Positions 2,116 through 36,470 of a DNA stretch of 64,000 nucleotides are shown here, one piece after another. The notes below the pieces were generated by a model. It was not told the origin of the DNA. It searched no databases and saw only the letters and a list, made by a program, of their open reading frames with translations. The first letter of the stretch is position 1. Each line of letters opens with the position of its first letter. The stretch comes from a virus (lineage: Duplodnaviria; Heunggongvirae; Uroviricota; Caudoviricetes), in IMG/VR virus record IMGVR_UViG_2693429713_000009; one strand, written 5' to 3'. The translations under genes were made by a program, and so were the position numbers.

Positions 2116-4063
2116 CAATCCTTTACGAATTAATATTCAGTCTACTTTTGCTGATACGATCCCCGGCTATATGCCAAGTCGCTGGTCTTCAGAAGAATTA
2201 AGCGAAGATGACCTGATTTTTGAGGCGGCGACCTTAGAAGATATTGAGCTTGCCTATATGGGCAATGAAATTCTGGTTGTGTCTGACGAAGCTATGTTTG
2301 AGTCCATAACTACAACCAGAATTCGGTTAGCTCAAACAATGCGAGCTTTCGTCCGTGCGCTGAATCGTGGCCTGAATGGTACGAATATTATGGCAGGGAC
2401 TGATGAAGCTGGGACCGATGAAAATGGACGTAATTGTATTGGAGGTGCGATTATCGGTCGTGTACGTCGGGTAGCTAATATCCCTGTTTTGACCGCGCAG
2501 ATACCGCTTACTGACGGGCAGAGTACAAGCATAATTTTCCACTCTCCAACAGCTGACGGGGCAAAAATAAAGAGTAACGACGAGCTTGTTGCATTTCAGT
2601 TTTTACTTAATAAGCGTAACGTAACTCACGTTGTCGCCCCGATTGGTGGGAGAGATGTTTCTTTAAGCCAGGTATGCCAGGCGCTATCTAATTTGATTGA
2701 GCGTAACAGCGAAAAATTTAAGAAAGCAAAAGAGCGCCAGGACAAAATGAAGGCAGATATTGAGAGTTATCTCAATGAAGCAGATAAACTGGCAGAAGAA
2801 CGGTCAATAATGATTGATCAGGTGGACGTTGCGCAACGTGGGCTGACTGAAAAGCGTGCTGCTCTTACGGAGATGCAAAAAAAACTTGATGCCCAGAAAG
2901 CCATCAACGAGGAATTACAAGAAAAACGCGATAAATTGTTGTCTGCTAAAGGTGAAAAAACGAAGGAACGAGCGTTTAGTGACCAGCTGCGACATGTAAA
3001 ACATAATCTTGCCATTGACGGAAAAACAGTGCTGGATAATGGCGCTGAAGTTAATTATGTCACGTCCGGCAGTGACAATTTCGTTACGATAGTAGCACCT
3101 GAAGGTAAATTCAGTATTGATGCCAGTGCTGTCAAAGGAGGCAGTTTGGCAGATGCTGCAACCAAATTACTTAAAGCCTACCGAGAGCATAACGCAGATA
3201 AATATAAAGTTGATGTGTTACCAGGCCAGCAGGAAGACTCCGAACCACCACAGACAGACCCCGAGACGAACCCAGTATCACAATCAGAAAGCCAAGATGT
3301 AGGTAAATACCACTATGCACTTCAATCTCGCCCGGCTGGTGTTGGTGCTGTGCCGGATGGAAATAAAGCCGTGCTTGATCGTCCTGACCAGGCTGATCAG
3401 TATTACGAATATGCTCGTCACGGTATCATTACGTATGACCGTAAACTGACAGATGAAGAAGTCAGCCAGTACGAGTTGCTCTATCTTCCTGATGAAGATG
3501 AGCTGAAAGATTTTGCAGACCAATTGGTTGCGTCCAGCATGTCGAAACATATTGATGGCTATGTGGACCTGTTTGGCAGTGACCTGAAAACATTCAAGGC
3601 GCAAGTGAAAATTCTTTTCCGCAAAGCGTTTCCAAACGTGGCGTATCCACTTAGTGATGGGGAGAACCTTTTCATTATGGACGTGTATAACGCCCTTCAA
3701 AATCATTCAAGCGAAGTAAAAATAGAGCATATGGTTGAGCCAGAATCACAACCACAACCACAACCACAACCACAACCACAACCACAACTACAACCAGCAC
3801 CAGAACAGGAGCCAGAAGAAACGGGTGAATCAGCAAGTGAAGCTGATCAGGAGGCAGATAAAGCACTGGAGTACCTGAAATCCGTGCCGGAGCAGTTTAC
3901 ATCCCGCGATCTGACGGTCATCAGTGCTGAACTTGATCATGTGCAGGAAGCAGCAAACGCTCTAATCAGTGCAGGTCGATACGACGAGAACGAAGCCACT
4001 GTTGGTGAAGCAGTTGACTACCTGATCAACATTCTGGCTGAAATTCAGCAGGGAGGTGCTTAA
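2102..4063 (+). CDS. darA: DarA-like antirestriction / internal head protein
   Basis: About 650 aa, size and operon position as in P1 darA; internal PQ repeat; overlaps upstream gene. Confidence 0.45.
   Translation: MSMINNPLRINIQSTFADTIPGYMPSRWSSEELSEDDLIFEAATLEDIELAYMGNEILVVSDEAMFESITTTRIRLAQTMRAFVRALNRGLNGTNIMAGTDEAGTDENGRNCIGGAIIGRVRRVANIPVLTAQIPLTDGQSTSIIFHSPTADGAKIKSNDELVAFQFLLNKRNVTHVVAPIGGRDVSLSQVCQALSNLIERNSEKFKKAKERQDKMKADIESYLNEADKLAEERSIMIDQVDVAQRGLTEKRAALTEMQKKLDAQKAINEELQEKRDKLLSAKGEKTKERAFSDQLRHVKHNLAIDGKTVLDNGAEVNYVTSGSDNFVTIVAPEGKFSIDASAVKGGSLADAATKLLKAYREHNADKYKVDVLPGQQEDSEPPQTDPETNPVSQSESQDVGKYHYALQSRPAGVGAVPDGNKAVLDRPDQADQYYEYARHGIITYDRKLTDEEVSQYELLYLPDEDELKDFADQLVASSMSKHIDGYVDLFGSDLKTFKAQVKILFRKAFPNVAYPLSDGENLFIMDVYNALQNHSSEVKIEHMVEPESQPQPQPQPQPQPQLQPAPEQEPEETGESASEADQEADKALEYLKSVPEQFTSRDLTVISAELDHVQEAANALISAGRYDENEATVGEAVDYLINILAEIQQGGA
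3747..3792 (+). repeat. (CAACCA)n hexanucleotide microsatellite inside DarA-like CDS
   Basis: About seven tandem CAACCA units encoding QPQPQPQPQPQP. Confidence 0.7.
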
Positions 4064-4513: not shown

Positions 4514-5911
4514 TTGGAGTGTATTTTGAACAAATCCGTTACTTCTGCGCTTTCCGGGGCCACAGATATTAACAGCGTCATTGCTCTGGTTTCTTCATTA
4601 GAGAGGAAAGAAACACGCCTGGGGCGAAGTAGCTACGTAGTCACCAGCAAAGGTGCAGAGGTAAAGACGGCTTTTAAGGTCGTTGATGCCAGCAGTCTGA
4701 TCATTTCGAACAACCTTGACGGTACGATTAACCCGGCCTTCCCGGAAGAACTCCAACCACGAGATCGTACCCGGCTATCCAGCAAACTCCAGGTTAACCG
4801 TATTGCCTCCAATTTACGCCCGGCACAATTAACGGATTCCGGTATGAGCAGCCACGGAGCGCCGATAGTTGGTCCGGACAACGTTGTTGAATCCGGCAAC
4901 GGAAGGAGTATGGGTATCTGGCGTGCCTATGAGCAAGGACAGGCGGATGAGTATCGCCAGTACCTGATCGACCATGCGAAAGAGTTTGGTCTGAATCCTG
5001 ACGAAATTTCGCAAATCTCTATGCCCGTACTGGTGCGAGAAAGACTCACAGATGTAGACCGCGCTCAATTTGCCCGCGATTCAAACATTAGCGATCTGCA
5101 AGAGATGGCAGCAAGTGAAAAAGCGTATGCGGATGCGCAATTTCTCACTGAGAGCGTCATGGCGCTATTTAATCCTTCAGATGATGGAAATCTGCTGGCG
5201 CGGTCCAATGATGCGTTTATTCGTGCGTTTTTGCGCGAAATTGGCGATACAGCGACGGCAGGCTTGCTTACTGCCGATGGGCGTCCCACGAAACAGCTTA
5301 TCGATCGCATCCAGAATGCAATTTTTGCCAAAGCGTACAAGGATGAAAGGCTTGTTCGGCTGGTGTCGGAAGAGCCAGATCCGGAAATGCGTAATATCCT
5401 GACCGCATTAAATACGGCAGCCAGCGATTTTGCGCAAATGCAGTCGCTGTCTGGCGACGCTCACCATGACGCAGTAACAGGCTTAGTGGACGGTATAGAG
5501 CAGGTTAATGGCCTGGATACACAGGCGATAGCAGCACTCCAGGAAGCAATTAATCTTGTACGTGAAGCCAAAGACAACGGTCAGGCCGTTGAAGAAGTGA
5601 TCGCCCAAAGGGGGTTATTCGGCGATAGTACACCGGAAGCTGAGGCATTGGCGTTATTCATCGTAGCAAATAATCGCAGTGCGAAGCGTATGGGGGCAGC
5701 ATTCAAAAAAATGGCGCAAAAAATCAACGACGAGCTGACTCATAAACAACAGGCATTGGGCGATATGTTCGGCGGTGGCGATGTTGATCTGCGTCGTATT
5801 TTGTCTGCTGTATCTGATGAAATTGAGGGTGAATTTGGCGAAGGGAAAGGTCTGAACTTTGCTATGTTTGAAAATTCTACAGGTCTAAATAATTGCCGTA
5901 CGGAAAACTAA
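4514..5911 (+). CDS. hypothetical protein, head/Dar module
   Basis: 465 aa ORF, same strand operon, no motif recognised. Confidence 0.35.
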   Translation: MECILNKSVTSALSGATDINSVIALVSSLERKETRLGRSSYVVTSKGAEVKTAFKVVDASSLIISNNLDGTINPAFPEELQPRDRTRLSSKLQVNRIASNLRPAQLTDSGMSSHGAPIVGPDNVVESGNGRSMGIWRAYEQGQADEYRQYLIDHAKEFGLNPDEISQISMPVLVRERLTDVDRAQFARDSNISDLQEMAASEKAYADAQFLTESVMALFNPSDDGNLLARSNDAFIRAFLREIGDTATAGLLTADGRPTKQLIDRIQNAIFAKAYKDERLVRLVSEEPDPEMRNILTALNTAASDFAQMQSLSGDAHHDAVTGLVDGIEQVNGLDTQAIAALQEAINLVREAKDNGQAVEEVIAQRGLFGDSTPEAEALALFIVANNRSAKRMGAAFKKMAQKINDELTHKQQALGDMFGGGDVDLRRILSAVSDEIEGEFGEGKGLNFAMFENSTGLNNCRTEN

Positions 5912-9917: not shown

Positions 9918-10019
9918 CGGAATGTATGATCTGCATCATCGACTGAAGTCATCCATTGCTGAAATTTTTAGTTGATCTTCCATGTTTTCAGGCTTATATT
10001 CATGCCGTCGTAGCAAATT

Positions 10020-10215
10020 CTGCGACCGGGTTTGACAGCCTGAATACTTACGCGGACAACCGCACATTTCCGATATTGCGGTATTTTTGTGTCCGTAAAA
10101 CCACGTTACGCCCGAATTATGGTGGGGCGTGATGGGGAGGCTTCGGCCTGCTGGTTTCGTAAGTGCCAGTCTGTCAACCCTGTCACGTCCTGCCACCTGT
10201 TTGACAGCGGGTCGC
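10020..10215 (+). ncRNA. candidate c4-like antisense RNA region
   Basis: Non-coding leader upstream of icd-like gene with direct repeats GTTTGACAGC (about 10029 and 10199) and complementary CTGTCAACCCTGTCAC (about 10172). Confidence 0.25.
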
Positions 10216-10471: not shown

Positions 10472-11178
10472 TGGAAATCTGCATTCTTGAAAAGCCATCA
10501 ATGACCAGCATTGAGATCGCGGAGCTGGTGGGAAGTCGCCCGGATAACGTTAAACGCACTATTGAACGCTTGAGTAAATCAGGTGTTATTCCACTTCCTC
10601 CAATGGAGGTTTCCGAAAATATCAATAACTTAGGATTTAAAGTTAAAAATTCACACTACGTCTTCGAAGGCGAGCAAGGCAAGCGTGACAGTATCATTGT
10701 CGTTGCGCAGCTTTCTCCCGAATTTACCGCCCGGCTGGTGGACCGCTGGCGCGAACTGGAAGAACAAGTACGCCAGCCGTTGACCGAAATAGAGATGATC
10801 GCCGCAATGGCTGCAAATGCAGTTCAGCAGCAAAAGCGGCTTCATGTTGTTGAGTCAAAGGTTAGCCAGGTGGTAGAAACCGTCGAGCAAATCAAGAAGG
10901 GCAACATGCCAGATGGTTACATTGGCTACCGCCAGCTGGCTGCGAAATGTGGCCTGACCGAAGCCAAATGCCGCAACCTTGTCAACGCTTACCGGATTCC
11001 CACCGATACACATGAGTTTTTAACTCCAGAGGGGGTATTGTCGCGTCGTTCCATCGTGGCCTTATCTCCCTTCATGAATGCTTTTAACCGGATGATGTCG
11101 GAGGCTGAACACCGAGGAAAACGCTGGTATCACCCCAAAATGGGGCAATTCCAGGTGATCGGTTGGGGAGGTGAGTGA
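10471..11178 (+). CDS. antirepressor, Rha/Ant family
   Basis: 235 aa; N-terminal Rha-like regulatory domain. Confidence 0.5.
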   Translation: MEICILEKPSMTSIEIAELVGSRPDNVKRTIERLSKSGVIPLPPMEVSENINNLGFKVKNSHYVFEGEQGKRDSIIVVAQLSPEFTARLVDRWRELEEQVRQPLTEIEMIAAMAANAVQQQKRLHVVESKVSQVVETVEQIKKGNMPDGYIGYRQLAAKCGLTEAKCRNLVNAYRIPTDTHEFLTPEGVLSRRSIVALSPFMNAFNRMMSEAEHRGKRWYHPKMGQFQVIGWGGE

Positions 11179-23314: not shown

Positions 23315-23391
23315 GGTGGTGTAGCTCAGTAGGATAGAGCAGCAGCCTTCTAAGCTGTCGGTCGGTGGTTCGAATCCACCCACCATCGCCA
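23315..23391 (+). tRNA. tRNA-Arg (anticodon TCT)
   Basis: Cloverleaf by eye: acceptor GGTGGTG/CACCATC, D arm GCTC..GAGC, anticodon loop CTTCTAA, T arm GGTGG-TTCGAAT-CCACC, encoded CCA. Confidence 0.75.
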
Positions 23392-23396
23392 ATTTA

Positions 23397-23483
23397 GGGG
23401 AGTTAGTCCGTAGGGGTAGCGGGGTAGACTGTAAATCTACTGTCATTGCGACTCGGATGGTTCGACTCCATCACTCCCCACCA
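23397..23483 (+). tRNA. tRNA-Tyr (anticodon GTA), long variable arm
   Basis: Acceptor GGGGAGT/ACTCCCC, anticodon stem-loop GTAGA-CTGTAAA-TCTAC, variable arm TGTCATTGCGACTCG, T arm GATGG-TTCGACT-CCATC, CCA. Confidence 0.65.
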
Positions 23484-23487
23484 AATT

Positions 23488-23563
23488 GCCGGTTTTGCTC
23501 AGTTGGTAGAGCGCCTGCCTTGTAAGCAGGATGTCAGCGGTTCGAGTCCGTTAACCGGCACCA
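23488..23563 (+). tRNA. tRNA-Thr (anticodon TGT)
   Basis: Acceptor GCCGGTT/AACCGGC, D arm GCTCAGTTGGTAGAGC, anticodon loop CTTGTAA, T loop TTCGAGT, CCA. Confidence 0.8.
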
Positions 23564-23564
23564 A

Positions 23565-23673
23565 CACAACAGGTAAGGGTATTTTGCGACGTCGGAGATC
23601 GCCGAGCTTGGCAGAGGGTTCGAATCCCTACGAAGTACCCTTACCGTTGTGATGAATGCGCAGGCTGATGCGC
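23565..23673 (+). repeat. long-stem hairpin repeat unit A (tRNA trailer element)
   Basis: CACAAC(A)GGTAAGGGTA pairs with TACCCTTACCGTTGTG; encloses T-arm-like AGGG-TTCGAAT-CCCT; followed by GATGAATGC and GCGCA-GGCTGA-TGCGC hairpin. Confidence 0.6.
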
Positions 23674-23753
23674 GAAAGACATTGCAGCTATTGCGGAAAA
23701 GAGCTGTCCGGCGGGGCAATTAAACGCCCGTGAGAGTCTGAAATAACCGCAAG

Positions 23754-23778
23754 CCGGAGATCAGCACCGGTCATCACA
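23754..23778 (+). other. conserved leader motif CCGGAGATCAGCACCGGTCATCACA
   Basis: One of three near-identical 25-nt copies preceding tRNA or trailer elements. Confidence 0.45.
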
Positions 23779-23856
23779 ACACAACAGGTAAGGGCATTCT
23801 CCTTATGGGGCTTGGCTTAAATGCATCGAGTGCTCTTACCGTTGTGATGAAGTGCA
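23775..23856 (+). repeat. long-stem hairpin repeat unit B
   Basis: ACAACAGGTAAGGGCATTC pairs with GAGTGCTCTTACCGTTGTG, then GATGAAGTGC tail. Confidence 0.55.
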
Positions 23857-23984
23857 GCTCTTAGAAGCAACCAGAAGATAAGCATCTGGCTTCACAACAT
23901 AAACCGCAGGAACGACCAATAAACGGTAGTCCGTATGGAGAACACCCCGTTGAGGAAGAGGCCTGGCCGGAACCGTAACCGGCA

Positions 23985-24101
23985 CTACAACGTTGAGAAC
24001 ACTGGCGTAACGGGGTCATATCCCAATCTATGAATAAATGTTGCGTTGCCGCGTGACAACCAGTGTTCTCAACATTGTGGTGAATGCACAGGCTGATGTG
24101 C
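23985..24101 (+). repeat. long-stem hairpin repeat unit C
   Basis: CTACAACGTTGAGAACACTGG pairs with CCAGTGTTCTCAACATTGTGG; stem sequence differs from unit A but flanks ACAAC and GTGGTGAATGC plus GCACA-GGCTGA-TGTGC hairpin are conserved; preceded by a tRNA-Thr-like 3' remnant. Confidence 0.55.
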
Positions 24102-24148
24102 CGCAACTACAGTAGTGCGCGCTTTGCGGGGCTTGCTACAACCCTGTG

Positions 24149-24173
24149 TCGGAGTTCAGCACCGACCATCACA
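24149..24173 (+). other. conserved leader motif TCGGAGTTCAGCACCGACCATCACA
   Basis: Second copy of 25-nt leader. Confidence 0.45.
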
Positions 24174-24260
24174 GTTTGATTCTCTGGCATGAGCATAACG
24201 CTGAAATAAGTCCAGTCTGGTGCGGTCTGATCACCCGCCGTTAGCTCCACGAAACGGAGC

Positions 24261-24371
24261 GCACAACAGGTAAGAGTATTTGTAGAGTTCGACTCTCTAC
24301 CGTGGGCTTTTTCCCGCGATGCGAGCCATAAATGCTCTTTCCGTTGTGGTGAATGCGCGTTGCTGGCGCGC
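24261..24371 (+). repeat. long-stem hairpin repeat unit D
   Basis: GCACAACAGGTAAGAGTATTT pairs with AAATGCTCTTTCCGTTGTGG; encloses T-arm-like GTAGAG-TTCGACT-CTCTAC; GTGGTGAATGC plus GCGCG hairpin. Confidence 0.55.
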
Positions 24372-24470
24372 AAGTCCGCCCTATGGCAACGAGGCGGTGT
24401 AGTAAATATCGATGCCTCAGTCATCAAGCGTACTGACCGGCCTTATGGGCTATGAAAAAAAGAGGCGCAG

Positions 24471-24494
24471 TCGGCGATCAGCACCGACCATCAC
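24471..24494 (+). other. conserved leader motif TCGGCGATCAGCACCGACCATCACA
   Basis: Third copy, directly upstream of tRNA-Ser-like element. Confidence 0.45.
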
Positions 24495-24501
24495 AATCAC
24501 T

Positions 24502-24588
24502 GGAGAGTAGGGAGCATGGTGCTCAAGCGGCCTTGAAAACCGTCCCATTGCGCAAGCGATGATGGTTCGATTCCATTACTCTCCGCCA
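24502..24588 (+). tRNA. tRNA-Ser-like (anticodon TGA) element, possibly degenerate
   Basis: Acceptor GGAGAGT/ACTCTCC plus G-CCA, anticodon loop CTTGAAA as in bacterial tRNA-Ser(UGA), T arm GATGG-TTCGATT-CCATT, long variable region; D arm and anticodon stem imperfect. Confidence 0.4.
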
Positions 24589-24720
24589 GTGCAACGTTAA
24601 GAGTATTTGGCTAATTAAGCGAATGCCGGAAGCAGAACCGGATCACCAAATGCGTACAGGCGTCATCGCCGCCCAGCCAGCCAAGTGCTCTTACCATTGC
24701 GGTGAATGCGGCTAAGCGCA
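24589..24720 (+). repeat. long-stem hairpin repeat unit E
   Basis: CAACGTTAAGAGTATTTGGCT pairs with AGCCAAGTGCTCTTACCATTGCGG; GTGAATGC plus TGCG-GCTAAG-CGCA hairpin. Confidence 0.5.
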
Positions 24721-24796
24721 CGCGGAACAGTTAAAACAATTTTCCTTAATAGTTAAGTCAAACATCCCGGCGTTAATTGTTAACTGGTTAACGTCA

Positions 24797-24811
24797 CCTG
24801 GAGGCACCAGG
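24797..24811 (+). repeat. CCTGG-AGGCA-CCAGG hairpin (GGAGGCACC family)
   Basis: Same loop as 22589 and 25605 copies with compensatory stem changes. Confidence 0.5.
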
Positions 24812-25211
24812 CACCGCAATCTAATAAAGTTTCAAGCAATGGAGTTTTTGTTGTCAGACTTCAGATATAGATGGTTGTGGAAGGAGAGCCTGTGCATAGT
24901 GCAGTTATTTCTTCCGCTATTTGTCTGCTTTTTCATGCTTCCTGAGCTGAAATACGCAATTTCAGACACTTTAAGCACTATCGTTACTTTTGTGTTTTAT
25001 CTTTACTTTGATTACTTATTGAGCACTAAAATCAATGAATTATCCGAGGAAATGCAAGGTGGCTGTAAGTGATGAATTTTTGGGCGTTTGCCGATAAGAA
25101 CCCTGGTTGGACATTTTTATTTTTGCTGGTGGTTGCATATGGGGTCGAGCAAGCGGCAAAAGCCTTACGCGGTTCTGGCAAAAAGCGTAAGCGGAATTAA
25201 CAGTAATCTGG

Positions 25212-25287
25212 CCCTTTAGCTCAGTGGTTAGAGCAGGCGACTCATAATCGCACGGTCACCGGTTCAAATCCGGTAGGGGCCACCATA
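25212..25287 (+). tRNA. tRNA-Ile2 (anticodon CAT, lysidine type)
   Basis: Near-identical by recall to E. coli ileX: GGCCCTTTAGCTCAGTGGTTAGAGCAGGCGACTCATAATCGC...TTCAAATCC...GGGGCCACCA. Confidence 0.75.
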
Positions 25288-26815: not shown

Positions 26816-27208
26816 ATGGAACAAATCAGCAGCGCAGAAATTGCGGATATCATGATCAGGGCTGACTGCTATCTGACAGTCACTGAAATTACCACTCTCG
26901 CCAAAGAAAAATACCCTCATCTCCATGTTTCACGAGTAAGTGTAACTAACATCATTCGTCATTTTGTTCGTTCAAGCAGGGCAATCTGTGAGCTGGATGA
27001 TCGTGTGTATCCACGAAAATACTGGCTACATGGTCTGAACGGATATCAGTTCAAGGTGCGCGGGCGCACGCCTGAATACGGTAGCTTACTGGTTAAAAAC
27101 TGTAGCAGGAAATCAGTCGAACAGGCGCGAAAAGAGCAACGAGAGCTGGTGGACATGGCGAATAAGCTGTGGAATGCCGCCGTTAAAAAGCGTGGTGTTG
27201 CTTTATGA
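26816..27208 (+). CDS. possible late promoter activator (Lpa-like)
   Basis: 130 aa immediately upstream of pacA with operator-controlled promoter, as lpa in P1; assignment by position. Confidence 0.3.
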   Translation: MEQISSAEIADIMIRADCYLTVTEITTLAKEKYPHLHVSRVSVTNIIRHFVRSSRAICELDDRVYPRKYWLHGLNGYQFKVRGRTPEYGSLLVKNCSRKSVEQARKEQRELVDMANKLWNAAVKKRGVAL

Positions 27209-28569
27209 GTCTGGTTAATTGGGAGGAGCACCGCGCCCGCTTTATAGCGTTGCGTGAAGAAAAAGGGATCACTGTAAAGGAATACTGTGAGGAGCATGGC
27301 CTTAGCTTCAATACAGCCAGAAAGCATCTCAATATGAAAAAAAATGAGGTGCGGTCGCAGGTAAAGACAACAAAAAAAAGCACCAAATCACCTGAAAAAA
27401 AACGGGCGGGAAGAGCAACAAAAAAGCTGGAAGAGGGTGCAGAAAAAACAAAATTTACAGAAATTGACAATTCGCAGGGCGCAGGTTCTTTCCGAAGTAT
27501 GCCGAGAAAGAAAACTTCGGATCATGAAAATAATGCAAATAATAACAATGAGATAAAAGAATCTGTCAGGAGATCATTGCGCGAAAAAATGGCGAAAATG
27601 ATCCCCGAAGAAGATAAAAGCGCCCCAAAAATTGAGGGATCTTCAGCAATGATCCCTGGCGGTGCTGTGCAGCGTGCCACATTGCCCACTACGAATGTGG
27701 CTCGCGATATGATGAAGAACGGCGCAGAAGAACACCTGCGGTTAGCAATTCAAATGGCGCAAGAGCGCGCACTTCAGTATCAAAGCATTGTTGATCAGGA
27801 GGCCGAACGTCTACAGGCGGAAATAGACGCCTTGGGCGATAAAGAGCCAGAAGGAATGCACCCTGGGCAGCGCCTTCTCGGTCTAATCAGTGACGCGGCC
27901 TACTACATGAATGATTTTATCAGTAGGTTGGCAGCTATATATCAGTCCGAACAAAAGCTGCGACAGGGGGATGAAAAGCTTCGTCAGAGCGCTCGCCAGC
28001 AAGCATTCAAAGAGGCTGAGGCCAGAGAAAAACTCGAATTAGCACGCCTACAGGCCGAACAGCGTGGCAAAGAGATTGAATATCGCATTGGCGCTGACGC
28101 ACGCGCTGCCAGAGTTATCGCCGCCGCTATACGTATGCGTGAGCGCGAGGAACTGGATGATATCGGTGTTGCTGAATACATCGAGCGCCAGGGGGTCAGC
28201 GTCCCGGCTATCCTCGCGGCGCGCGCGGCGAAAGCTATCACTCTTCTCGAACCACCTGTTTCTGACGTCAATGATGTTGATGATGAACAGCTGGACAAAG
28301 AGGCAAGGGAGTTTGCAACGCTTCAGGCTAACCATCCGCAATGGCTGGCAGAGCGCCGGGCGGATGTGGCAACCATTGTTGAAGAATTGGGGTGCGGAGA
28401 TTACGACCGCAATGGCGAGCGTAAAGCTGGAGAATTCGAGGCCAACGACGAAGAGCTGGATATTGACCCTTCGGCAACGGCTGAAATTTACGGTGATTAT
28501 GATGCATCTGATGCAGGGTATGACGCCGGAGATGATGATATCGCGATAGAACCGCCGGAGGATGATTAA
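27205..28569 (+). CDS. pacA: terminase small subunit PacA-like
   Basis: 454 aa, coupled to terminase large subunit; contains internal GATC-rich pac-like cluster. Confidence 0.65.
   Translation: MSLVNWEEHRARFIALREEKGITVKEYCEEHGLSFNTARKHLNMKKNEVRSQVKTTKKSTKSPEKKRAGRATKKLEEGAEKTKFTEIDNSQGAGSFRSMPRKKTSDHENNANNNNEIKESVRRSLREKMAKMIPEEDKSAPKIEGSSAMIPGGAVQRATLPTTNVARDMMKNGAEEHLRLAIQMAQERALQYQSIVDQEAERLQAEIDALGDKEPEGMHPGQRLLGLISDAAYYMNDFISRLAAIYQSEQKLRQGDEKLRQSARQQAFKEAEAREKLELARLQAEQRGKEIEYRIGADARAARVIAAAIRMREREELDDIGVAEYIERQGVSVPAILAARAAKAITLLEPPVSDVNDVDDEQLDKEAREFATLQANHPQWLAERRADVATIVEELGCGDYDRNGERKAGEFEANDEELDIDPSATAEIYGDYDASDAGYDAGDDDIAIEPPEDD
27520..27654. promoter_or_regulatory. candidate pac site (GATC hexamer cluster)
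   Basis: Five GATC-containing hexamers (GGATCA, AGATCA, TGATCC, GGATCT, TGATCC) within about 135 bp inside pacA, as in the P1 pac site. Confidence 0.45.
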
Positions 28570-30077
28570 TGGCTGGCGGGCGCAAGATTAAATGCGTCAC
28601 CAGCGATCCACGCTGGCGCGATATGGTAATCAAATACCGCTACAACTTTACCCAGGCTGTTGTCGATATTTTTGGGATGTTCCCCTCCCACCAGCAGCAG
28701 CAGATCATTCAGTCAGTGCAGGAAACGGGGAGTAGGACGACCGTCACGTCCGGACACGGAACGGGGAAGTCGTCCCTTACCGCGATGTTGCTGTTGATTT
28801 TTATGATCCTGTTCCCCGATGCCCGTGTCATCATTGTTGCTAACAAGATAGGCCAGGTAAAAACAGGCGTATTCAAATACGTTAAACAGTATTGGGCGAA
28901 TGCAGTTAAGCGTCATGGGTGGTTGCAGACCTATTTTGTCCTCTCTGACACCATGTTTTATGAGCGCTCCCGTAAGGGGATTTGGGAAGTTCTCTGCAAA
29001 GGTTATCGACTCGGCAACGAAGAAGCGCTGGCGGGGGAACATGCGGCACATTTGCTTCTAATTCTGGATGAAGCATCTGGTATATCTGATAAGGCGATCG
29101 GCGTAATGACCGGTGCTCTTACTGAAGAAGATAACCGGATGTTGATGCTATCCCAGCCAACAAGGCCAAGTGGTTATTTCTACGATTCGCACCATTCTCA
29201 AGCAAAAACCCCAGACAACCCGAAAGGGATCTGGACAGCAATTGTTCTTAACTCGGAAGAATCACCGTTCGTCACACCACAATTCATCAAGCAGAAGCTT
29301 CTGGAATATGGCGGGCGCGATTCTATTGAGTACATGGTCAAGGTGCTTGGTCAGTTCCCACGAGAAATTAACGGCTATTTGCTTGGTCGTGATGAATGCG
29401 ATCGCGCAGCTCGCCGCAAGGTGTTGTTGGAGAAAAACTGGGGATGGGTGGCAACGGCTGACGTTGGTAATGGGCGAGATAAGTCGGTCCTCAACATCTG
29501 CAAGGTATCTGGTCACAGGGATAAGCGGCGCGTTGTTAACTTTAAGGTAATGGAGATGCCTGGCACTATGGACCCATTGGCCTTTGCTGACTTCATATAT
29601 AACGAATGTACGCCGGAAAAATACCCGAATATAACAATCGCGGTTGATGCCGATGGTTTTGGTTCTGATACGTGTGCGCAGTTGGTGCGTCGTGGTGCGA
29701 ACCCGGTACGTATTCGGTGGGGAAAACCCATGTTTGCGAACAAAGACAGGGAGCGATTTGTTAATCAGCGTGCCTACGCAAATATTATGGCGCGTGATGC
29801 CATAAAGTCAGGGCGTATGCGGATAGACAGTGACCCTAAAACGGCAGAGCAAGCGTCAAAAATCCCCTTTTTACTGAATGAGGAAGGGAAAATGGCGATG
29901 ATGCGCAAAGAGCACATGCGGCAAAAGCTAAACATCAAATCGCCTGACCGATGGGATACCTACTGCTTCACTATGCTGGTGGACTATGTGCCTGCTAATG
30001 AAGATATTGGTGCCGAAATGGCAACTTTCCGAGATCAGGTTCTGGCGGATATCGAAATGCCAGATCTGGATATATAA
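28569..30077 (+). CDS. pacB: terminase large subunit PacB-like
   Basis: 502 aa; Walker A SGHGTGKSS, Walker B LLLILDEASG. Confidence 0.85.
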   Translation: MAGGRKIKCVTSDPRWRDMVIKYRYNFTQAVVDIFGMFPSHQQQQIIQSVQETGSRTTVTSGHGTGKSSLTAMLLLIFMILFPDARVIIVANKIGQVKTGVFKYVKQYWANAVKRHGWLQTYFVLSDTMFYERSRKGIWEVLCKGYRLGNEEALAGEHAAHLLLILDEASGISDKAIGVMTGALTEEDNRMLMLSQPTRPSGYFYDSHHSQAKTPDNPKGIWTAIVLNSEESPFVTPQFIKQKLLEYGGRDSIEYMVKVLGQFPREINGYLLGRDECDRAARRKVLLEKNWGWVATADVGNGRDKSVLNICKVSGHRDKRRVVNFKVMEMPGTMDPLAFADFIYNECTPEKYPNITIAVDADGFGSDTCAQLVRRGANPVRIRWGKPMFANKDRERFVNQRAYANIMARDAIKSGRMRIDSDPKTAEQASKIPFLLNEEGKMAMMRKEHMRQKLNIKSPDRWDTYCFTMLVDYVPANEDIGAEMATFRDQVLADIEMPDLDI

Positions 30078-30104: not shown

Positions 30105-31142
30105 TTACCAGAGCTTCGCGGCGTACTGCGTTTGGGGGAATGTGTATCCGTAACGTTCTTCGATTGCTTTGCCGTATTTTTTACGAGCTTCATTCAGTTT
30201 AATGCCGGTCAGGTCGTCTCCAGAGGCCATCATTACGTCTAACAATTCCAGATCCATTTTATCCAGCCTTGCCATTGCTTCACGTGATGTACGTATCTTA
30301 CGCTCAATGATATGGCGAATAGCCGGATCGGCATCCTCCAGCATCTTAGCGGATTTCTGCTTAAGGCTTTCATTGCGAATATCGATGTTCCTTAAGATGT
30401 ACGACTTCGCAACGTAGCTTGGCTGGTGTTTTTCCAGGTCACGAACACGATATAAGTTAAAATCGCCGAGAAGGCTGCAAGGTACCGATTCGACGCCAGA
30501 ATAAATTGTAATGCTCCGGCGTTCACCAACATTATTGACAACGGGGATCGTTGTCTTCGGTAGTCTTGCGAAAACCAATGCGCCATGTGCGCCAACTCTA
30601 AAGCGAGAAAGGGCATTGCTGCCTTCGATGTTTGTTGTCAGCACAACATCTGTATATGCCTCTTTACGCGCCCGGTAGATCTCGCCTTCAGGCTCAGCTT
30701 CAAAGAAGCGCTGTTCTTCTTCAAGAGCACCTACGATTTGAGAAAAAACCCTATTTTTCAGGCTTTTCTTTATGATTTTGTCGTATTTTTTGAGCAATTG
30801 TTCACGTGTAAATGTACGTGTTGTTGTAGCGCTTTGCACAACAACATGCGTGCTTTGATTGGTGTCCTCAATGATGAATGGGATCGGAGAATATACAGAC
30901 TCAACAATGTTCGACGCTTTGCCGTCGGCATCGCGACACATGTCAACGAAGGCTTTCCATTCAGCAAGACATTTTTCAGCTTCTTCTAATATGTTTTGGT
31001 CATGCGTTAATGCAACATGGCGGAATTCCTCGCCAGCATAACTGGTATCATGGAAAACAGAGTTTGCGACCACCAGCTCTTTCCACCGTTCAGCGGTTTG
31101 CAGGAACCGTTTGTACTCTTTCTCGATCGACTTCTTACTCAT
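30105..31142 (-). CDS. C1-like primary repressor (by position)
   Basis: 345 aa, convergent with pacB and divergent from lox-cre as c1 in P1; operator-like motif in its own promoter. Confidence 0.4.
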   Translation of the reverse strand: MSKKSIEKEYKRFLQTAERWKELVVANSVFHDTSYAGEEFRHVALTHDQNILEEAEKCLAEWKAFVDMCRDADGKASNIVESVYSPIPFIIEDTNQSTHVVVQSATTTRTFTREQLLKKYDKIIKKSLKNRVFSQIVGALEEEQRFFEAEPEGEIYRARKEAYTDVVLTTNIEGSNALSRFRVGAHGALVFARLPKTTIPVVNNVGERRSITIYSGVESVPCSLLGDFNLYRVRDLEKHQPSYVAKSYILRNIDIRNESLKQKSAKMLEDADPAIRHIIERKIRTSREAMARLDKMDLELLDVMMASGDDLTGIKLNEARKKYGKAIEERYGYTFPQTQYAAKLW

Positions 31143-31160
31143 TATTCCTACTCGATTTAG

Positions 31161-31170
31161 TTTTCTAACA
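31161..31170. promoter_or_regulatory. operator-like motif TTTTCTAACA in repressor promoter
   Basis: 19 nt upstream of repressor start codon. Confidence 0.5.
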
Positions 31171-31351
31171 TAAAATTACTATGACAAATTTATGTCGAAT
31201 AACAGAGTGAGTAAAGGATCGAACTGTGATTTTTTGTCATCAATTTTAGAAAACCAACTGTATAAACCACACTTCGCAAATTAAAGACCATGAAGGCAAC
31301 GTGTTACTGGTCAGAATCAATCTGTGATGGATTAAAAAAAATCGCCATTTT

Positions 31352-31385
31352 ATAACTTTAAATAATTGGCATTATTTAAAGTTAG
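31352..31385. promoter_or_regulatory. lox-like recombination site
   Basis: ATAACTTTAAATA-ATTGGCAT-TATTTAAAGTTAG: 13-bp inverted arms (12/13) around 8-bp asymmetric spacer, arm ends ATAACTT as in loxP. Confidence 0.7.
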
Positions 31386-31536
31386 GCTATAATCATGTGT
31401 AGATGAACAGTGTTGACATCACTGAAAATACGTGCCTCGAATCAAAGGCTTGTATTTTGAAAATTAACTTATAGCTACCCTGTCATTTTTATATTTTTCG
31501 CGTAGCGTCATCTGTATATAGAGGTCAAATAGTTTC

Positions 31537-32565
31537 ATGAGTGAATTAATTATCTCTGGCAGTTCCGGTGGTTTTCTGCGCAACATTGGCAAAGAGTACC
31601 AGGAAGCCGCAGAAAACTTTATGCGGTTCATGAATGACCAGGGGGCTTATGCGCCGAATACTCTGCGCGACCTCCGTTTGGTGTTTCATTCCTGGGCGCG
31701 CTGGTGTCACGCTCGCCAGCTTGCCTGGTTTCCGATCTCACCAGAAATGGCCCGCGAGTATTTTCTTCAGCTGCATGATGCCGATCTGGCTTCGACCACC
31801 ATTGATAAGCACTACGCCATGCTGAACATGCTGCTTTCGCATTGTGGCCTTCCGCCACTTTCGGATGATAAAAGTGTTTCTCTGGCTATGCGGCGCATCC
31901 GGCGCGAAGCGGCAACTGAAAAAGGCGAACGAACAGGCCAGGCTATACCGCTGCGGTGGGACGATCTGAAACTGCTCGACGTCCTGTTGTCCAGGTCAGA
32001 ACGGCTGGTGGACCTGCGCAACCGGGCTTTTCTCTTTGTTGCATACAATACGCTGATGCGTATGTCGGAAATATCGCGTATTCGTGTAGGTGATCTGGAC
32101 CAAACAGGTGACACTGTCACGCTACATATTTCACACACGAAGACAATAACGACCGCCGCCGGGCTTGATAAGGTGCTTTCCCGTCGCACTACCGCTGTGC
32201 TGAATGACTGGCTGGATGTTTCCGGGCTTCGCGAACACCCTGACGCAGTGCTGTTCCCGCCGATACACCGTAGCAATAAGGCCAGGATCACGACAACGCC
32301 ACTTACTGCACCTGCAATGGAGAAAATATTCAGCGACGCCTGGGTGTTGCTGAATAAAAGAGATGCTACGCCAAACAAAGGAAGATACCGGACGTGGACC
32401 GGGCATAGTGCACGCGTCGGGGCCGCTATTGATATGGCTGAAAAGCAGGTGTCTATGGTGGAGATCATGCAGGAAGGAACCTGGAAGAAACCGGAAACAC
32501 TTATGCGGTATCTCCGCCGTGGCGGCGTGTCTGTGGGGGCTAATAGCCGCCTGATGGATTCGTAA
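31537..32565 (+). CDS. cre: Cre-like tyrosine recombinase
   Basis: 342 aa; SWARWCHARQLAWFP and C-terminal GHSARVGAA closely parallel P1 Cre. Confidence 0.9.
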   Translation: MSELIISGSSGGFLRNIGKEYQEAAENFMRFMNDQGAYAPNTLRDLRLVFHSWARWCHARQLAWFPISPEMAREYFLQLHDADLASTTIDKHYAMLNMLLSHCGLPPLSDDKSVSLAMRRIRREAATEKGERTGQAIPLRWDDLKLLDVLLSRSERLVDLRNRAFLFVAYNTLMRMSEISRIRVGDLDQTGDTVTLHISHTKTITTAAGLDKVLSRRTTAVLNDWLDVSGLREHPDAVLFPPIHRSNKARITTTPLTAPAMEKIFSDAWVLLNKRDATPNKGRYRTWTGHSARVGAAIDMAEKQVSMVEIMQEGTWKKPETLMRYLRRGGVSVGANSRLMDS

Positions 32566-32572
32566 ATTAAAT

Positions 32573-32581
32573 TTCTAACAC
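32573..32581. promoter_or_regulatory. operator-like motif TTTCTAACA
   Basis: Between cre and downstream gene. Confidence 0.4.
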
Positions 32582-32638
32582 ATCTTTTTAGATTAACATC
32601 TTTGCTGTAAAGTACCCTCGCCTACTTAGGAGGGTGCT

Positions 32639-32983: not shown

Positions 32984-33456
32984 AAACTTATTACCCATCT
33001 CTGAATTGTTACCCATCTTCCTATCCAGAATTATCCGGGAAGCTGTTAGCTCTATTAGCTAAAGCACCTACGGAATGGTTTAAGCCAGTCGTTATCAATC
33101 CACACTTCCTGGATTACGGAACTGTTCGCACTCGTAACGAACTCAAAAACCTACTGGCGCATGGATTCATTCGACACCGTGCCGGGAAAGGCTATCAGTT
33201 AGCGATTGCGCCAGAAGAGGCCGTGCGGCTATTCGCATATCGTGACAGCCAGACAAAAGCTCGGGTAATAGCTCAAATACTTCATAACGGCAGCACCTAT
33301 GCCCGCCAGTTTGGCGGCGACACGTCGCAGTTCTTGCGGGCGGTGCGATCGCTGGAGGAGCAAGGAGTTATTGAAAGTTCCTGTCTTCCTGTTCCTACCG
33401 TTCCACATATCAAACGTCGGGTTTACACCTTCACGCAGAGAGCTAAAAAACAATGA
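32980..33456 (+). CDS. hypothetical protein
   Basis: 158 aa ORF, coupled. Confidence 0.4.
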   Translation: MKTYYPSLNCYPSSYPELSGKLLALLAKAPTEWFKPVVINPHFLDYGTVRTRNELKNLLAHGFIRHRAGKGYQLAIAPEEAVRLFAYRDSQTKARVIAQILHNGSTYARQFGGDTSQFLRAVRSLEEQGVIESSCLPVPTVPHIKRRVYTFTQRAKKQ

Positions 33457-33947
33457 TTTACGTAAAAGTGAAACGCCTACATCCGGCAGCAAAACTTCCA
33501 GCTTATGCCACCTCCGGATCGGCGGCGATGGATTTTGAGGCTGTTGAAATAAAACCATGCGTCGATAGCAATGGTGCAATTTCCTCAAGCTGGTGGGTGT
33601 ACACCGGACTGGCTATGGAGATCCCGCCCGGCTGGTGTCTGAAACTCTATCCGCGCTCCGGATTGGGCTGCAAAAAACATACTCGCCTGGCTAACTGCGT
33701 AGGAATTATCGACTCCGATTATCGCGGTGAAATCATGGCAAAACTGATTACTGATCCAGGCGGGGAAGTCGTTCGTCTCAAGCCTGGAATGGCTGTCATG
33801 CAAGGCATTTTTGAGCGTGTTGAACAAGTCTCACTAGTCGAGGTTGAGGAACTCAACGAAACGGAACGTGGTGCTGGTGGCTTTGGTAGCACATCGGAAG
33901 ACCACTTTGAAATCAAGCGCACACCGCTTCAGTACGCAAAGTTTTAA
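33453..33947 (+). CDS. dut: dUTP diphosphatase
   Basis: 164 aa; GIIDSDYRGE and RGAGGFGST motifs. Confidence 0.8.
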   Translation: MIYVKVKRLHPAAKLPAYATSGSAAMDFEAVEIKPCVDSNGAISSSWWVYTGLAMEIPPGWCLKLYPRSGLGCKKHTRLANCVGIIDSDYRGEIMAKLITDPGGEVVRLKPGMAVMQGIFERVEQVSLVEVEELNETERGAGGFGSTSEDHFEIKRTPLQYAKF

Positions 33948-33961
33948 GCAGAGGAAAGGCT

Positions 33962-34612
33962 ATGAATTACATGGCAACGAAAGAGCTTTTTAAGTTCCTT
34001 CCCAAATACAAAGCTCACAAAAACGTTAGTGCATCGAAAATCAAAAATGTTGTTATTTTCGGAGTAACTGATGCCCCACTTTGGGGCTGCATTGAACTCG
34101 TTGAACCAAAAGGGGCAACAGTTTGTGTTGACGCAATATTTTTACAAAAACACCGACCAAAAACTGGCGGGTATCTGATCGTTTATGAAAACGGTTATCT
34201 GTTCTATGCCCCGGAGAAACCATTTGAGGAATGCTATGGCCTGGTTAACGACGCCTCCGAAAATGGAACCACGGTCATCATTACGGATGACAACGGCGTG
34301 ATGATTAATATTACCGGGAGCGTAACTATTTCTGCTGGTGGTACCACTACCCAGCAAGAGGAAATCGACCTTGAAGCAGCCGACTTTTCTGATGCGCTAA
34401 TGTGGCTGAAAGAAGGAAAAAATGTAGCTCGACGCGAGTGGAAAGGCGAAAAGCAATTCTGCTGGTTAGTTCTCGCTGGGAGCGTCAATTTACACGACAT
34501 TCAGGTTCCTTATGGTGACCATTTCGTATTGAAAGATGCACAAAATATGGACAGCGTTTGGTTGCCGTCTGTTGATGATTTACTGGCTTGTGACTGGTTT
34601 GTAGTGGAGTGA
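33962..34612 (+). CDS. two-domain protein with C-terminal DUF2829 (Tad2-like) domain
   Basis: 216 aa; C-terminal FSDALMWLKEGKNVARREWKGEKQFCWLV...ACDWFVVE. Confidence 0.5.
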   Translation: MNYMATKELFKFLPKYKAHKNVSASKIKNVVIFGVTDAPLWGCIELVEPKGATVCVDAIFLQKHRPKTGGYLIVYENGYLFYAPEKPFEECYGLVNDASENGTTVIITDDNGVMINITGSVTISAGGTTTQQEEIDLEAADFSDALMWLKEGKNVARREWKGEKQFCWLVLAGSVNLHDIQVPYGDHFVLKDAQNMDSVWLPSVDDLLACDWFVVE

Positions 34613-34618
34613 TTTGAC

Positions 34619-35386
34619 ATGGAAAGCACCAAAACAATTCAATACCGCTTGCGTAATGGCCTGCTGGTGGCTGTTAACGCCGACATGTCACTGCCGTTTG
34701 ACACGATTGAACGCACTATCATGACGTATCTCGGCTTTAATGAAGAGCTGAATGAAGAGCATGGCGTAGCTATATGGAGTGATGCAGACAGCGGCGTTCG
34801 TCGTTACATCACCGCCAGGGGCAAAGACTACTCTCTGGAAGAACTGTTTGCCCTTGCGCAGTCTTTCGAATGTGTAGCATTAGACCTGTTTAATGATCCT
34901 GCTATAGCGCAACGACTTATACGCGAGCTTGGGCTATCCGTTACACCAATTATCTTTAAAAATGGCAGCCTGACTGGCACATGGCGCGTAGAACGCATCT
35001 CAAACTACCTTCCATATAACCGACAGTTAAATGGAGTAATCTCCGGCGTTAATCAGCCCGTAGCGTGTGAAAATGTAAACCTGGTTGTCGCTGTTTTGGC
35101 AACCGCATGTCGTGTTATCGGTTTGGCTAAACAGGCATTTATTCATTTCCCAAATGGTGCAGAAGGTAGCGCAGAGATTATCGCGTGTGATTTCGAATTT
35201 ACCTGGATGCTACGCGAATATCTGGACCAAACAGTGTTCCGCGCCGAAGAACTGGATATGTATATCACGTCAACGATTCCTGATGATGTGCGTGCTGAAG
35301 CAATCGCTACAGCAAGGGCCAAATGCCGTGCGGCGATTGCAGAGCAGGCCAAAGAAGAAGTTAAGGAAGTGGCAGATGGCGACTAA
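34619..35386 (+). CDS. hypothetical protein coupled to terminase-like paralog
   Basis: 255 aa; stop overlaps start of downstream gene (ATGGCGACTAA). Confidence 0.4.
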   Translation: MESTKTIQYRLRNGLLVAVNADMSLPFDTIERTIMTYLGFNEELNEEHGVAIWSDADSGVRRYITARGKDYSLEELFALAQSFECVALDLFNDPAIAQRLIRELGLSVTPIIFKNGSLTGTWRVERISNYLPYNRQLNGVISGVNQPVACENVNLVVAVLATACRVIGLAKQAFIHFPNGAEGSAEIIACDFEFTWMLREYLDQTVFRAEELDMYITSTIPDDVRAEAIATARAKCRAAIAEQAKEEVKEVADGD

Positions 35387-36470
35387 GAGCAATATTTATA
35401 AAGATCCGCGCTGGCTGTCGCTGGTGGAGAAATATAAAGACAATTGGGTTCTGGCAGCAAAAGAATTGTTTGATATTGATTTAAGCCACCAGCAACAACA
35501 AATTGTTGAAGCTATACAGCCCAATAATGCAAAAGCTACTGTCACCACTCCGCATGGGATCGGACGACCGCAAGTGCTTGCTGTTATTAGTACCCTTTAT
35601 ACGATTATGTATCCTGATTCCCGGACAGTAATTGTTTATCCAAAATCAAATGCTTGCAAAAAAGGAATTGTTGCATATGTGTGGCAATGTTGGGAGGCAT
35701 TACTGAAAAAACAACCTTTTATCATTGAGTATTTTAAGGTCGGTGATAGCGGTCTGATGTTCAATGAATTTTGGGGAATGTGCTTTTGTAACTACCGCCT
35801 TAACTATGAAGATAGCATTGCAGGTCACTACGCCGACCATCTGTTATTCATTATTGTGGATTCCGCACATATAAGCGATCGGGCATACAGTATTGTGTGG
35901 GCAAGCATGACTAGTGGTGATTCACGCATATTGCTCACTTCAATTCCGTCACCAGAGGAAATAGGATTTTTTTATGATTCTCATCATGGGCGTGCTTTAG
36001 CTGAAGATAATCCGAGTGGTGTCTATAAAGCCATTAAGCTGAGTGCTGAGGATTCACCATTTATTACCCAAGAATATCTTGATCATTTTGCCGAAAGGTA
36101 TGGCGGGCGAAATAGTGATGACTACCGTCGTATGATTCTTGGTGAGTTCCCTGGTATTAGGGAGGCTGTTCTTGAATCAGATATGCCGAAAACAATGCGT
36201 TTTTCAATGCCTGATGGCAGTGAATGGACAATGCCATTACGAGTGATAGCCAAGCATCATGCACAGCACCACGCCAAAAAACATGGCGTTACAACATTAG
36301 AGTGGTTGAAATCGCACACCATTCCACTCTTCACTGCAGATCACAATGCTATCGTTGAGTGGGCAAAAACAATTCCGTGGGGGAATGTCGCTGAATACGC
36401 CCACATGCTAAAACCGCCGAAAGACAGGCAAGAAATTAGCTGGCTGACAGCAGAAAAAATCATTGAGTGA
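35376..36470 (+). CDS. degenerate terminase large subunit paralog (ATPase motifs inactivated, nuclease domain absent)
   Basis: 364 aa; aligns with PacB (DPRW, HQQQQI, FYDSHH, EDSPF) but Walker A is HGIGRPQ and Walker B is IIVDSAH. Confidence 0.6.
   Translation: MATKSNIYKDPRWLSLVEKYKDNWVLAAKELFDIDLSHQQQQIVEAIQPNNAKATVTTPHGIGRPQVLAVISTLYTIMYPDSRTVIVYPKSNACKKGIVAYVWQCWEALLKKQPFIIEYFKVGDSGLMFNEFWGMCFCNYRLNYEDSIAGHYADHLLFIIVDSAHISDRAYSIVWASMTSGDSRILLTSIPSPEEIGFFYDSHHGRALAEDNPSGVYKAIKLSAEDSPFITQEYLDHFAERYGGRNSDDYRRMILGEFPGIREAVLESDMPKTMRFSMPDGSEWTMPLRVIAKHHAQHHAKKHGVTTLEWLKSHTIPLFTADHNAIVEWAKTIPWGNVAEYAHMLKPPKDRQEISWLTAEKIIE

Follow-up and report, generated by a model that had tools for sequence, protein, structure and literature searches.

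The question raised by this locus is whether a loxP-like palindrome and the gene for a Cre homolog beside it, carried on a stretch of 64,000 nucleotides of Caudoviricetes virus DNA (IMG/VR record IMGVR_UViG_2693429713_000009; hereafter the window), make up a recombinase/site pair with a specificity of its own, or a system that already has a name. The comparison with described phage elements answers in favor of the latter. We assign the module, with a probability of about 97%, to the Dre/rox site-specific recombination system of a D6-like phage-plasmid of the P1 family; the finding is real, yet it is already known, since Dre/rox was published in 2004 and is in routine use.

When positions 31100-32600 were compared with phage records by megablast, the D6 immC record AY753669.1 was recovered at 97.3% identity, and the features annotated under the match are c1, rox (region of crossover, Dre recombinase) and the dre tyrosine recombinase gene. 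The rox annotated in this record (misc_recomb, positions 4909-4940 of our locus L001) reads TAACTTTAAATAATTGGCATTATTTAAAGTTA and is identical to the 32 bp at 31353-31384 of the window, the flanking bases (A and G) being also the same in both. Moreover, the wild-type rox in print, 5'-TAACTTTAAATAATGCCAATTATTTAAAGTTA-3', is the reverse complement of the same 32 bp (PMC4777119), and the 34-mer used in another study, (A)TAACTTTAAATAAT TGGC ATTATTTAAAGTTA(G), equals the 34-mer of the window letter for letter (PMC3082901). The exact rox string, TAACTTTAAATAAT-TGGC-ATTATTTAAAGTTA, is present at these positions. Papers that use the system credit its first description to Sauer and McDermott (2004, Nucleic Acids Res 32:6086, as cited in PMC3082901 and PMC3553980). 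The first-pass annotation had itself held that identity to a described variant with known specificity would reduce the novelty of the site, and rox is such a variant.

The adjacent gene leads to the same assignment, its product being identical to Dre (AAV84949.1) at 342/342 residues (100%). The divergence from Cre that had been noticed at first is real, with 41% identity between Dre and P1 Cre over 322 aa. In a search of PDB sequences (E <= 0.001) no structure with the Dre sequence was found, only Cre and Cre-derived chains that are ~41% identical to it (E = 5e-69 for Cre chains). Furthermore, the protein matches the Pfam family Phage_integrase (PF00589, E = 5e-17, 62.6 bits vs. a cutoff of 27.1), and the catalytic set R175, K202, H290, R293, W316 and Y325 (numbering as in PMC4777119) is complete and aligned to the catalytic residues of Cre. 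The gene starts 152 bp downstream of the site.

Regarding the site itself, the initial reading that it keeps the outer ATAACTT of loxP and differs in the inner arm and spacer was accurate: in a position-by-position alignment 22/34 bases are identical and 12/34 differ, the outer ATAACTT and the inner ATA of the arms being common to both, and the differences falling at arm positions 8-10 and over most of the spacer. Its division into 13-8-13, taken from loxP, has to be replaced. The computed symmetry is that of two perfectly complementary 14-bp halves around a 4-bp non-palindromic core and, because complementarity ends at A 31352 and G 31385, which are non-complementary and fall outside the inverted repeat, the natural unit is 32 bp long and organized as 14-4-14. 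Although the asymmetric core measures 4 bp, it has been argued that crossover at rox functionally involves a region of ~8 bp, similar in length to that of loxP (PMC4777119). Within the 64-kb window, the 34-mer occurs once, even with up to 3 mismatches permitted, and no further rox-like site or half-site was found by this search with the full site; with the 14-bp arm and at most 2 mismatches, the sole other match is a lone one at 10632. The element therefore carries one rox only, which fits a site used for resolution or cyclisation. The features of the region are collected in Table 1.

Table 1. Features of the rox region in the window, and position of the site in four IMG/VR relatives (numbering of the respective locus).
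Feature	Coordinates	Strand	Basis or remark
lpa, late activator	26816-27208	+	Pfam PF25716, E = 5e-57; D6 synteny
pacA, packaging	27205-28569	+	Gene order and 98.8% DNA identity to AY753669.1
pacB, packaging	28569-30077	+	Gene order and 98.8% DNA identity to AY753669.1
c1-type repressor gene	30105-31142	-	Corresponds to annotated c1 in the D6 immC record
34-bp site as first quoted	31352-31385		Reads ATAACTTTAAATAATTGGCATTATTTAAAGTTAG
rox, 32-bp Dre recombination site	31353-31384	.	Identity to annotated and published rox
rox left arm	31353-31366		TAACTTTAAATAAT
rox asymmetric core	31367-31370		TGGC
rox right arm	31371-31384		ATTATTTAAAGTTA
Putative promoter	31366-31393	+	TTGGCA-16 bp-TATAAT, 11/12 consensus positions
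dre, Cre-like tyrosine recombinase, 342 aa	31537-32565	+	342/342 identical to Dre
dut	33453-33947		Two small ORFs between dre and dut
Site in L006	2317-2348		Starts ~184 bp upstream of ATG
Site in L022	2317-2348		Starts ~184 bp upstream of ATG
Site in L036	2316-2347		Starts ~184 bp upstream of ATG
Site in L038	2318-2349		Starts ~184 bp upstream of ATG

The genomic context is likewise that of Dre/rox. The c1-type repressor gene, for whose product a Pfam search gave no match, and dre are divergent, with rox in the intergenic region between them, and the order lpa-pacA-pacB-c1-rox-dre-orf-orf-dut follows that of the D6 immC record collinearly, over 7.3 kb of DNA that is 98.8% identical. In this context, rox has c1 on one side and the recombinase gene on the other, within the pac-c1 region of a phage-plasmid related to P1. 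As far as sequence can tell, then, site and protein agree with Dre/rox on every criterion of identity and location considered here, and nothing contradicts the identification. A P1-type cluster of TGATCA/G hexamers marking pac was not evident in and around pacA, where one hexamer only was found (27792).

The window shares with Escherichia (Salmonella) phage D6 (AY753669.1, MF356679.1) the site and its flanking bases, the recombinase and the gene order; DNA identity is 98.8% in the immC region and 97.3% across c1-rox-dre, and the two are different replicons. The nearest match among the records recovered is pGMI14-002_2, a plasmid of Salmonella enterica serovar Concord and a circular, non-mobilizable molecule of 92,366 bp, which is 99.9% identical over the query and 99.6-99.8% identical over the 29.7 kb compared. 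One difference from D6 is an ORF at 35085-36470 on the plus strand (equivalent of the annotated start at 35376), downstream of an isaA-like gene, which is absent from D6 and has a counterpart in pGMI14-002_2 listed as a hypothetical protein. Its product, without a Pfam match, is a PacB paralogue in the N-terminal ATPase half (38% identity to PacB over 258 aa, E = 2e-62) with a degenerate Walker A motif, PHGIGRP vs. GHGTGKS in PacB.

Other elements of the window were recorded in passing. Just downstream of dut, at 33962-34612 on the plus strand, a 216-aa protein carries a C-terminal Tad2-like domain (Thoeris anti-defence 2, DUF2829; PF11195, E = 1e-17). A five-member tRNA cluster (Arg-TCT, Tyr-GTA, Thr-TGT, Ser-TGA and Met-CAT) and a P1-type C4 antisense RNA with a1/b1 target elements (immI-type immunity) were detected at 23315-25285 and 9994-10200, both on the plus strand, as well as a tandem hexamer array at 3747-3796 (8.3 copies of CACAAC, 95% matches).

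Relative to the Cre/loxP system of P1, the enzyme family, the catalytic residues and an inverted-repeat site with an asymmetric center are conserved, whereas the two sites depart from each other at arm positions 8-10, in the core and in symmetry (13-8-13 in loxP, 14-4-14 in rox). The P1 lox site lies likewise between c1 and the recombinase gene on the P1 map. It is located ~420 bp upstream of cre, with cra and three annotated promoters in between, whereas 152 bp separate rox from dre. With 22/34 site positions and 41% protein identity, the module of the window is, by sequence comparison, a homologue of Cre/loxP and not a member of it.

Functional studies are on record for exactly the site and protein sequences of the window. 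In Escherichia coli, Dre recombines rox with rox, both in excision and in co-integration, and no cross-reaction between Cre/loxP and Dre/rox was seen there (PMC3082901). Activity of Dre on rox without cross-reaction of Cre and Dre has been reported repeatedly (PMC3082901, PMC3553980, PMC12331466), including the use of both enzymes without cross-talk in Bacillus subtilis (PMC12331466), and the absence of cross-recombination sets Dre/rox apart from the P1 system (PMC3082901, PMC12331466). Another comparable system is Panto/pox, a Cre-like recombinase and its site from Pantoea sp. aB, in which Panto is reported to be 52% identical to Dre, and the pox arms differ from rox at one position, with a different spacer (PMC4957104); its source is Pantoea, not an E. 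coli or Salmonella phage-plasmid of the P1 type. Since each of the two enzymes, Dre and Panto, also recombines the site of the other (PMC4957104), orthogonality is not absolute across the family. The proposal of a naturally orthogonal pair of the Cre/lox type was right in kind, the pair being Dre/rox, which has been known since 2004, its specificity included.

Regarding distribution, c1-rox-dre was matched in ~144 plasmids of PLSDB (118 from Escherichia, 16 from Salmonella, nine from Shigella and one from Enterobacter), mostly of ~90 kb among the matches listed. Among complete E. coli genomes, 124/5426 carry a match, and 126/129 of the places matched are plasmid-borne. In Salmonella Typhimurium ST213, D6-like plasmid prophages have been described, with the recombinase and its site listed as a multimer-resolution function (PMC6799933). 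In the scan of GTDB species representatives no D6-like locus was found, only distant relatives of Dre at 41-47% identity (L040-L113). These are common in Pantoea, Erwinia, Mixta, Rahnella and Chimaeribacter, occur on both large contigs and plasmids, and presumably represent the Panto/pox-type group.

Conservation was examined in IMG/VR, in 35 loci whose recombinases are 55-100% identical to Dre; in all of them (35/35), rox or a rox-like palindrome is separated by 151-153 bp from the ATG of the recombinase gene downstream. The 32-mer is identical in 21 of the 35 loci. One substitution, A to G in the left arm (variant arm TAACTTTAGATAAT), distinguishes nine more, or 10 when L032 is included, a locus that combines this change with the core TGGA and an altered right arm. 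Changes restricted to the core were identified in L022 (GGGG) and in L036 (TAGC), the latter encoding a Dre 70% identical to that of the window, and the most distant L038 and L039 (Dre 55-56% identical) display a distinct site, TAACTTTATATAA-TGTCAG-TTATATAAAGTTA.

The flanks of the site behave differently from each other among these relatives: the ~100 bp to its left (~31250-31352) fall into several unalignable types, whereas the right flank is conserved, as compared in L006, L010, L011, L027 and L031-L033. Since the site is kept while the left flank cannot be aligned between lineages, rox is constrained independently of its flanks. Moreover, L006 and L011 are 86% identical to the window over the left 2.3 kb (c1 side) and 96.6-97.9% identical over the right 2.6-3.7 kb (dre side). 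This jump in divergence at rox marks a mosaic junction; it fits with, and does not prove, an exchange between related plasmids at the site.

Alternative readings of the locus were weighed against these data. An undescribed orthogonal pair of the Cre/lox type, with a new specificity, might be suspected from the 12/34 site positions that differ from loxP and from a protein only 41% identical to Cre, and it is refuted because site and protein are each 100% identical to the published Dre/rox annotated in AY753669.1, so that we regard it as exceedingly improbable. A chance palindrome beside an unrelated integrase would be conceivable in an intergenic region as AT-rich as this one; nevertheless, none of 100 dinucleotide-preserving shuffles contained a match to the 34-mer, the two 14-bp arms are perfect, and the distance to the recombinase gene is fixed in 35 loci despite the unalignable left flank. 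Together with the identity to rox, these observations leave no room for this explanation.

A further possibility is that the palindrome serves chiefly as a transcription signal of dre, a promoter or operator, with recombination secondary or absent. Indeed, the only sigma-70 match of at least 11/12 positions in the 64-kb window, on both strands, overlaps rox and reads toward dre, its -35-like element falling within the core and right arm and its -10 hexamer beginning 3 bp past the site, and this TATAAT is kept across the D6-like loci L004-L036, in which the bases around it are variable. The identical sequence is, however, a proven Dre substrate in the literature, which refutes the version without recombination; a promoter role would add to recombination and not replace it, and the distant L038 and L039 keep the palindrome in variant form without TATAAT. 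We consider this reading very unlikely, and retain Dre/rox as the identity of the module.

A dual role of the site is a separate matter. Because the putative -35 element lies inside the core and right arm of rox, Dre autorepression is possible: rox may also serve as operator for a dre promoter, in which case bound Dre would repress transcription of its own gene, a suggestion that we make tentatively and hold to be rather doubtful. In the P1 annotation, by contrast, all three cre promoters are downstream of lox, none overlapping it. Our literature search, whose reach did not include Sauer and McDermott (2004), returned nothing relevant on promoter activity or autoregulation at rox. A terminator-like hairpin with a single weak 5-bp stem was also noted at 31434-31449 on the minus strand.

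The mode of action of Dre can be proposed by analogy with Cre, given the 41% identity and the conserved active site. One Dre monomer would bind each arm of rox, and two sites would synapse within a Dre tetramer; Tyr325 would attack at either end of the ~8-bp crossover region, within or next to the asymmetric core, and strands would be exchanged in two steps via a Holliday junction, probably with no need for cofactors. The direction of the reaction would be set by the asymmetric core.

In P1, resolution of plasmid dimers and cyclisation of terminally redundant virion DNA are the demonstrated roles of Cre/lox. By extension, Dre and rox likely convert dimers of the phage-plasmid into monomers, favoring segregation and stable inheritance, and, judging by gene order, likely also circularize incoming terminally redundant virion DNA.

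In brief, as a discovery the locus counts for little, Dre/rox being a standard tool of genome engineering. Dre is in standard use as a recombinase for mammalian cells and, since 2004-2009, the system has been a standard partner of Cre/loxP for intersectional genetics, with uses in mice, zebrafish, cell lines and bacteria. The case illustrates that a truly heterospecific recombinase/site pair is recoverable from raw sequence. Furthermore, the natural rox variants and the distant Dre relatives could interest engineers of new recombinase specificities, and exact Dre and rox circulate in many phage-plasmids of ~90 kb in E. coli, Salmonella and Shigella.
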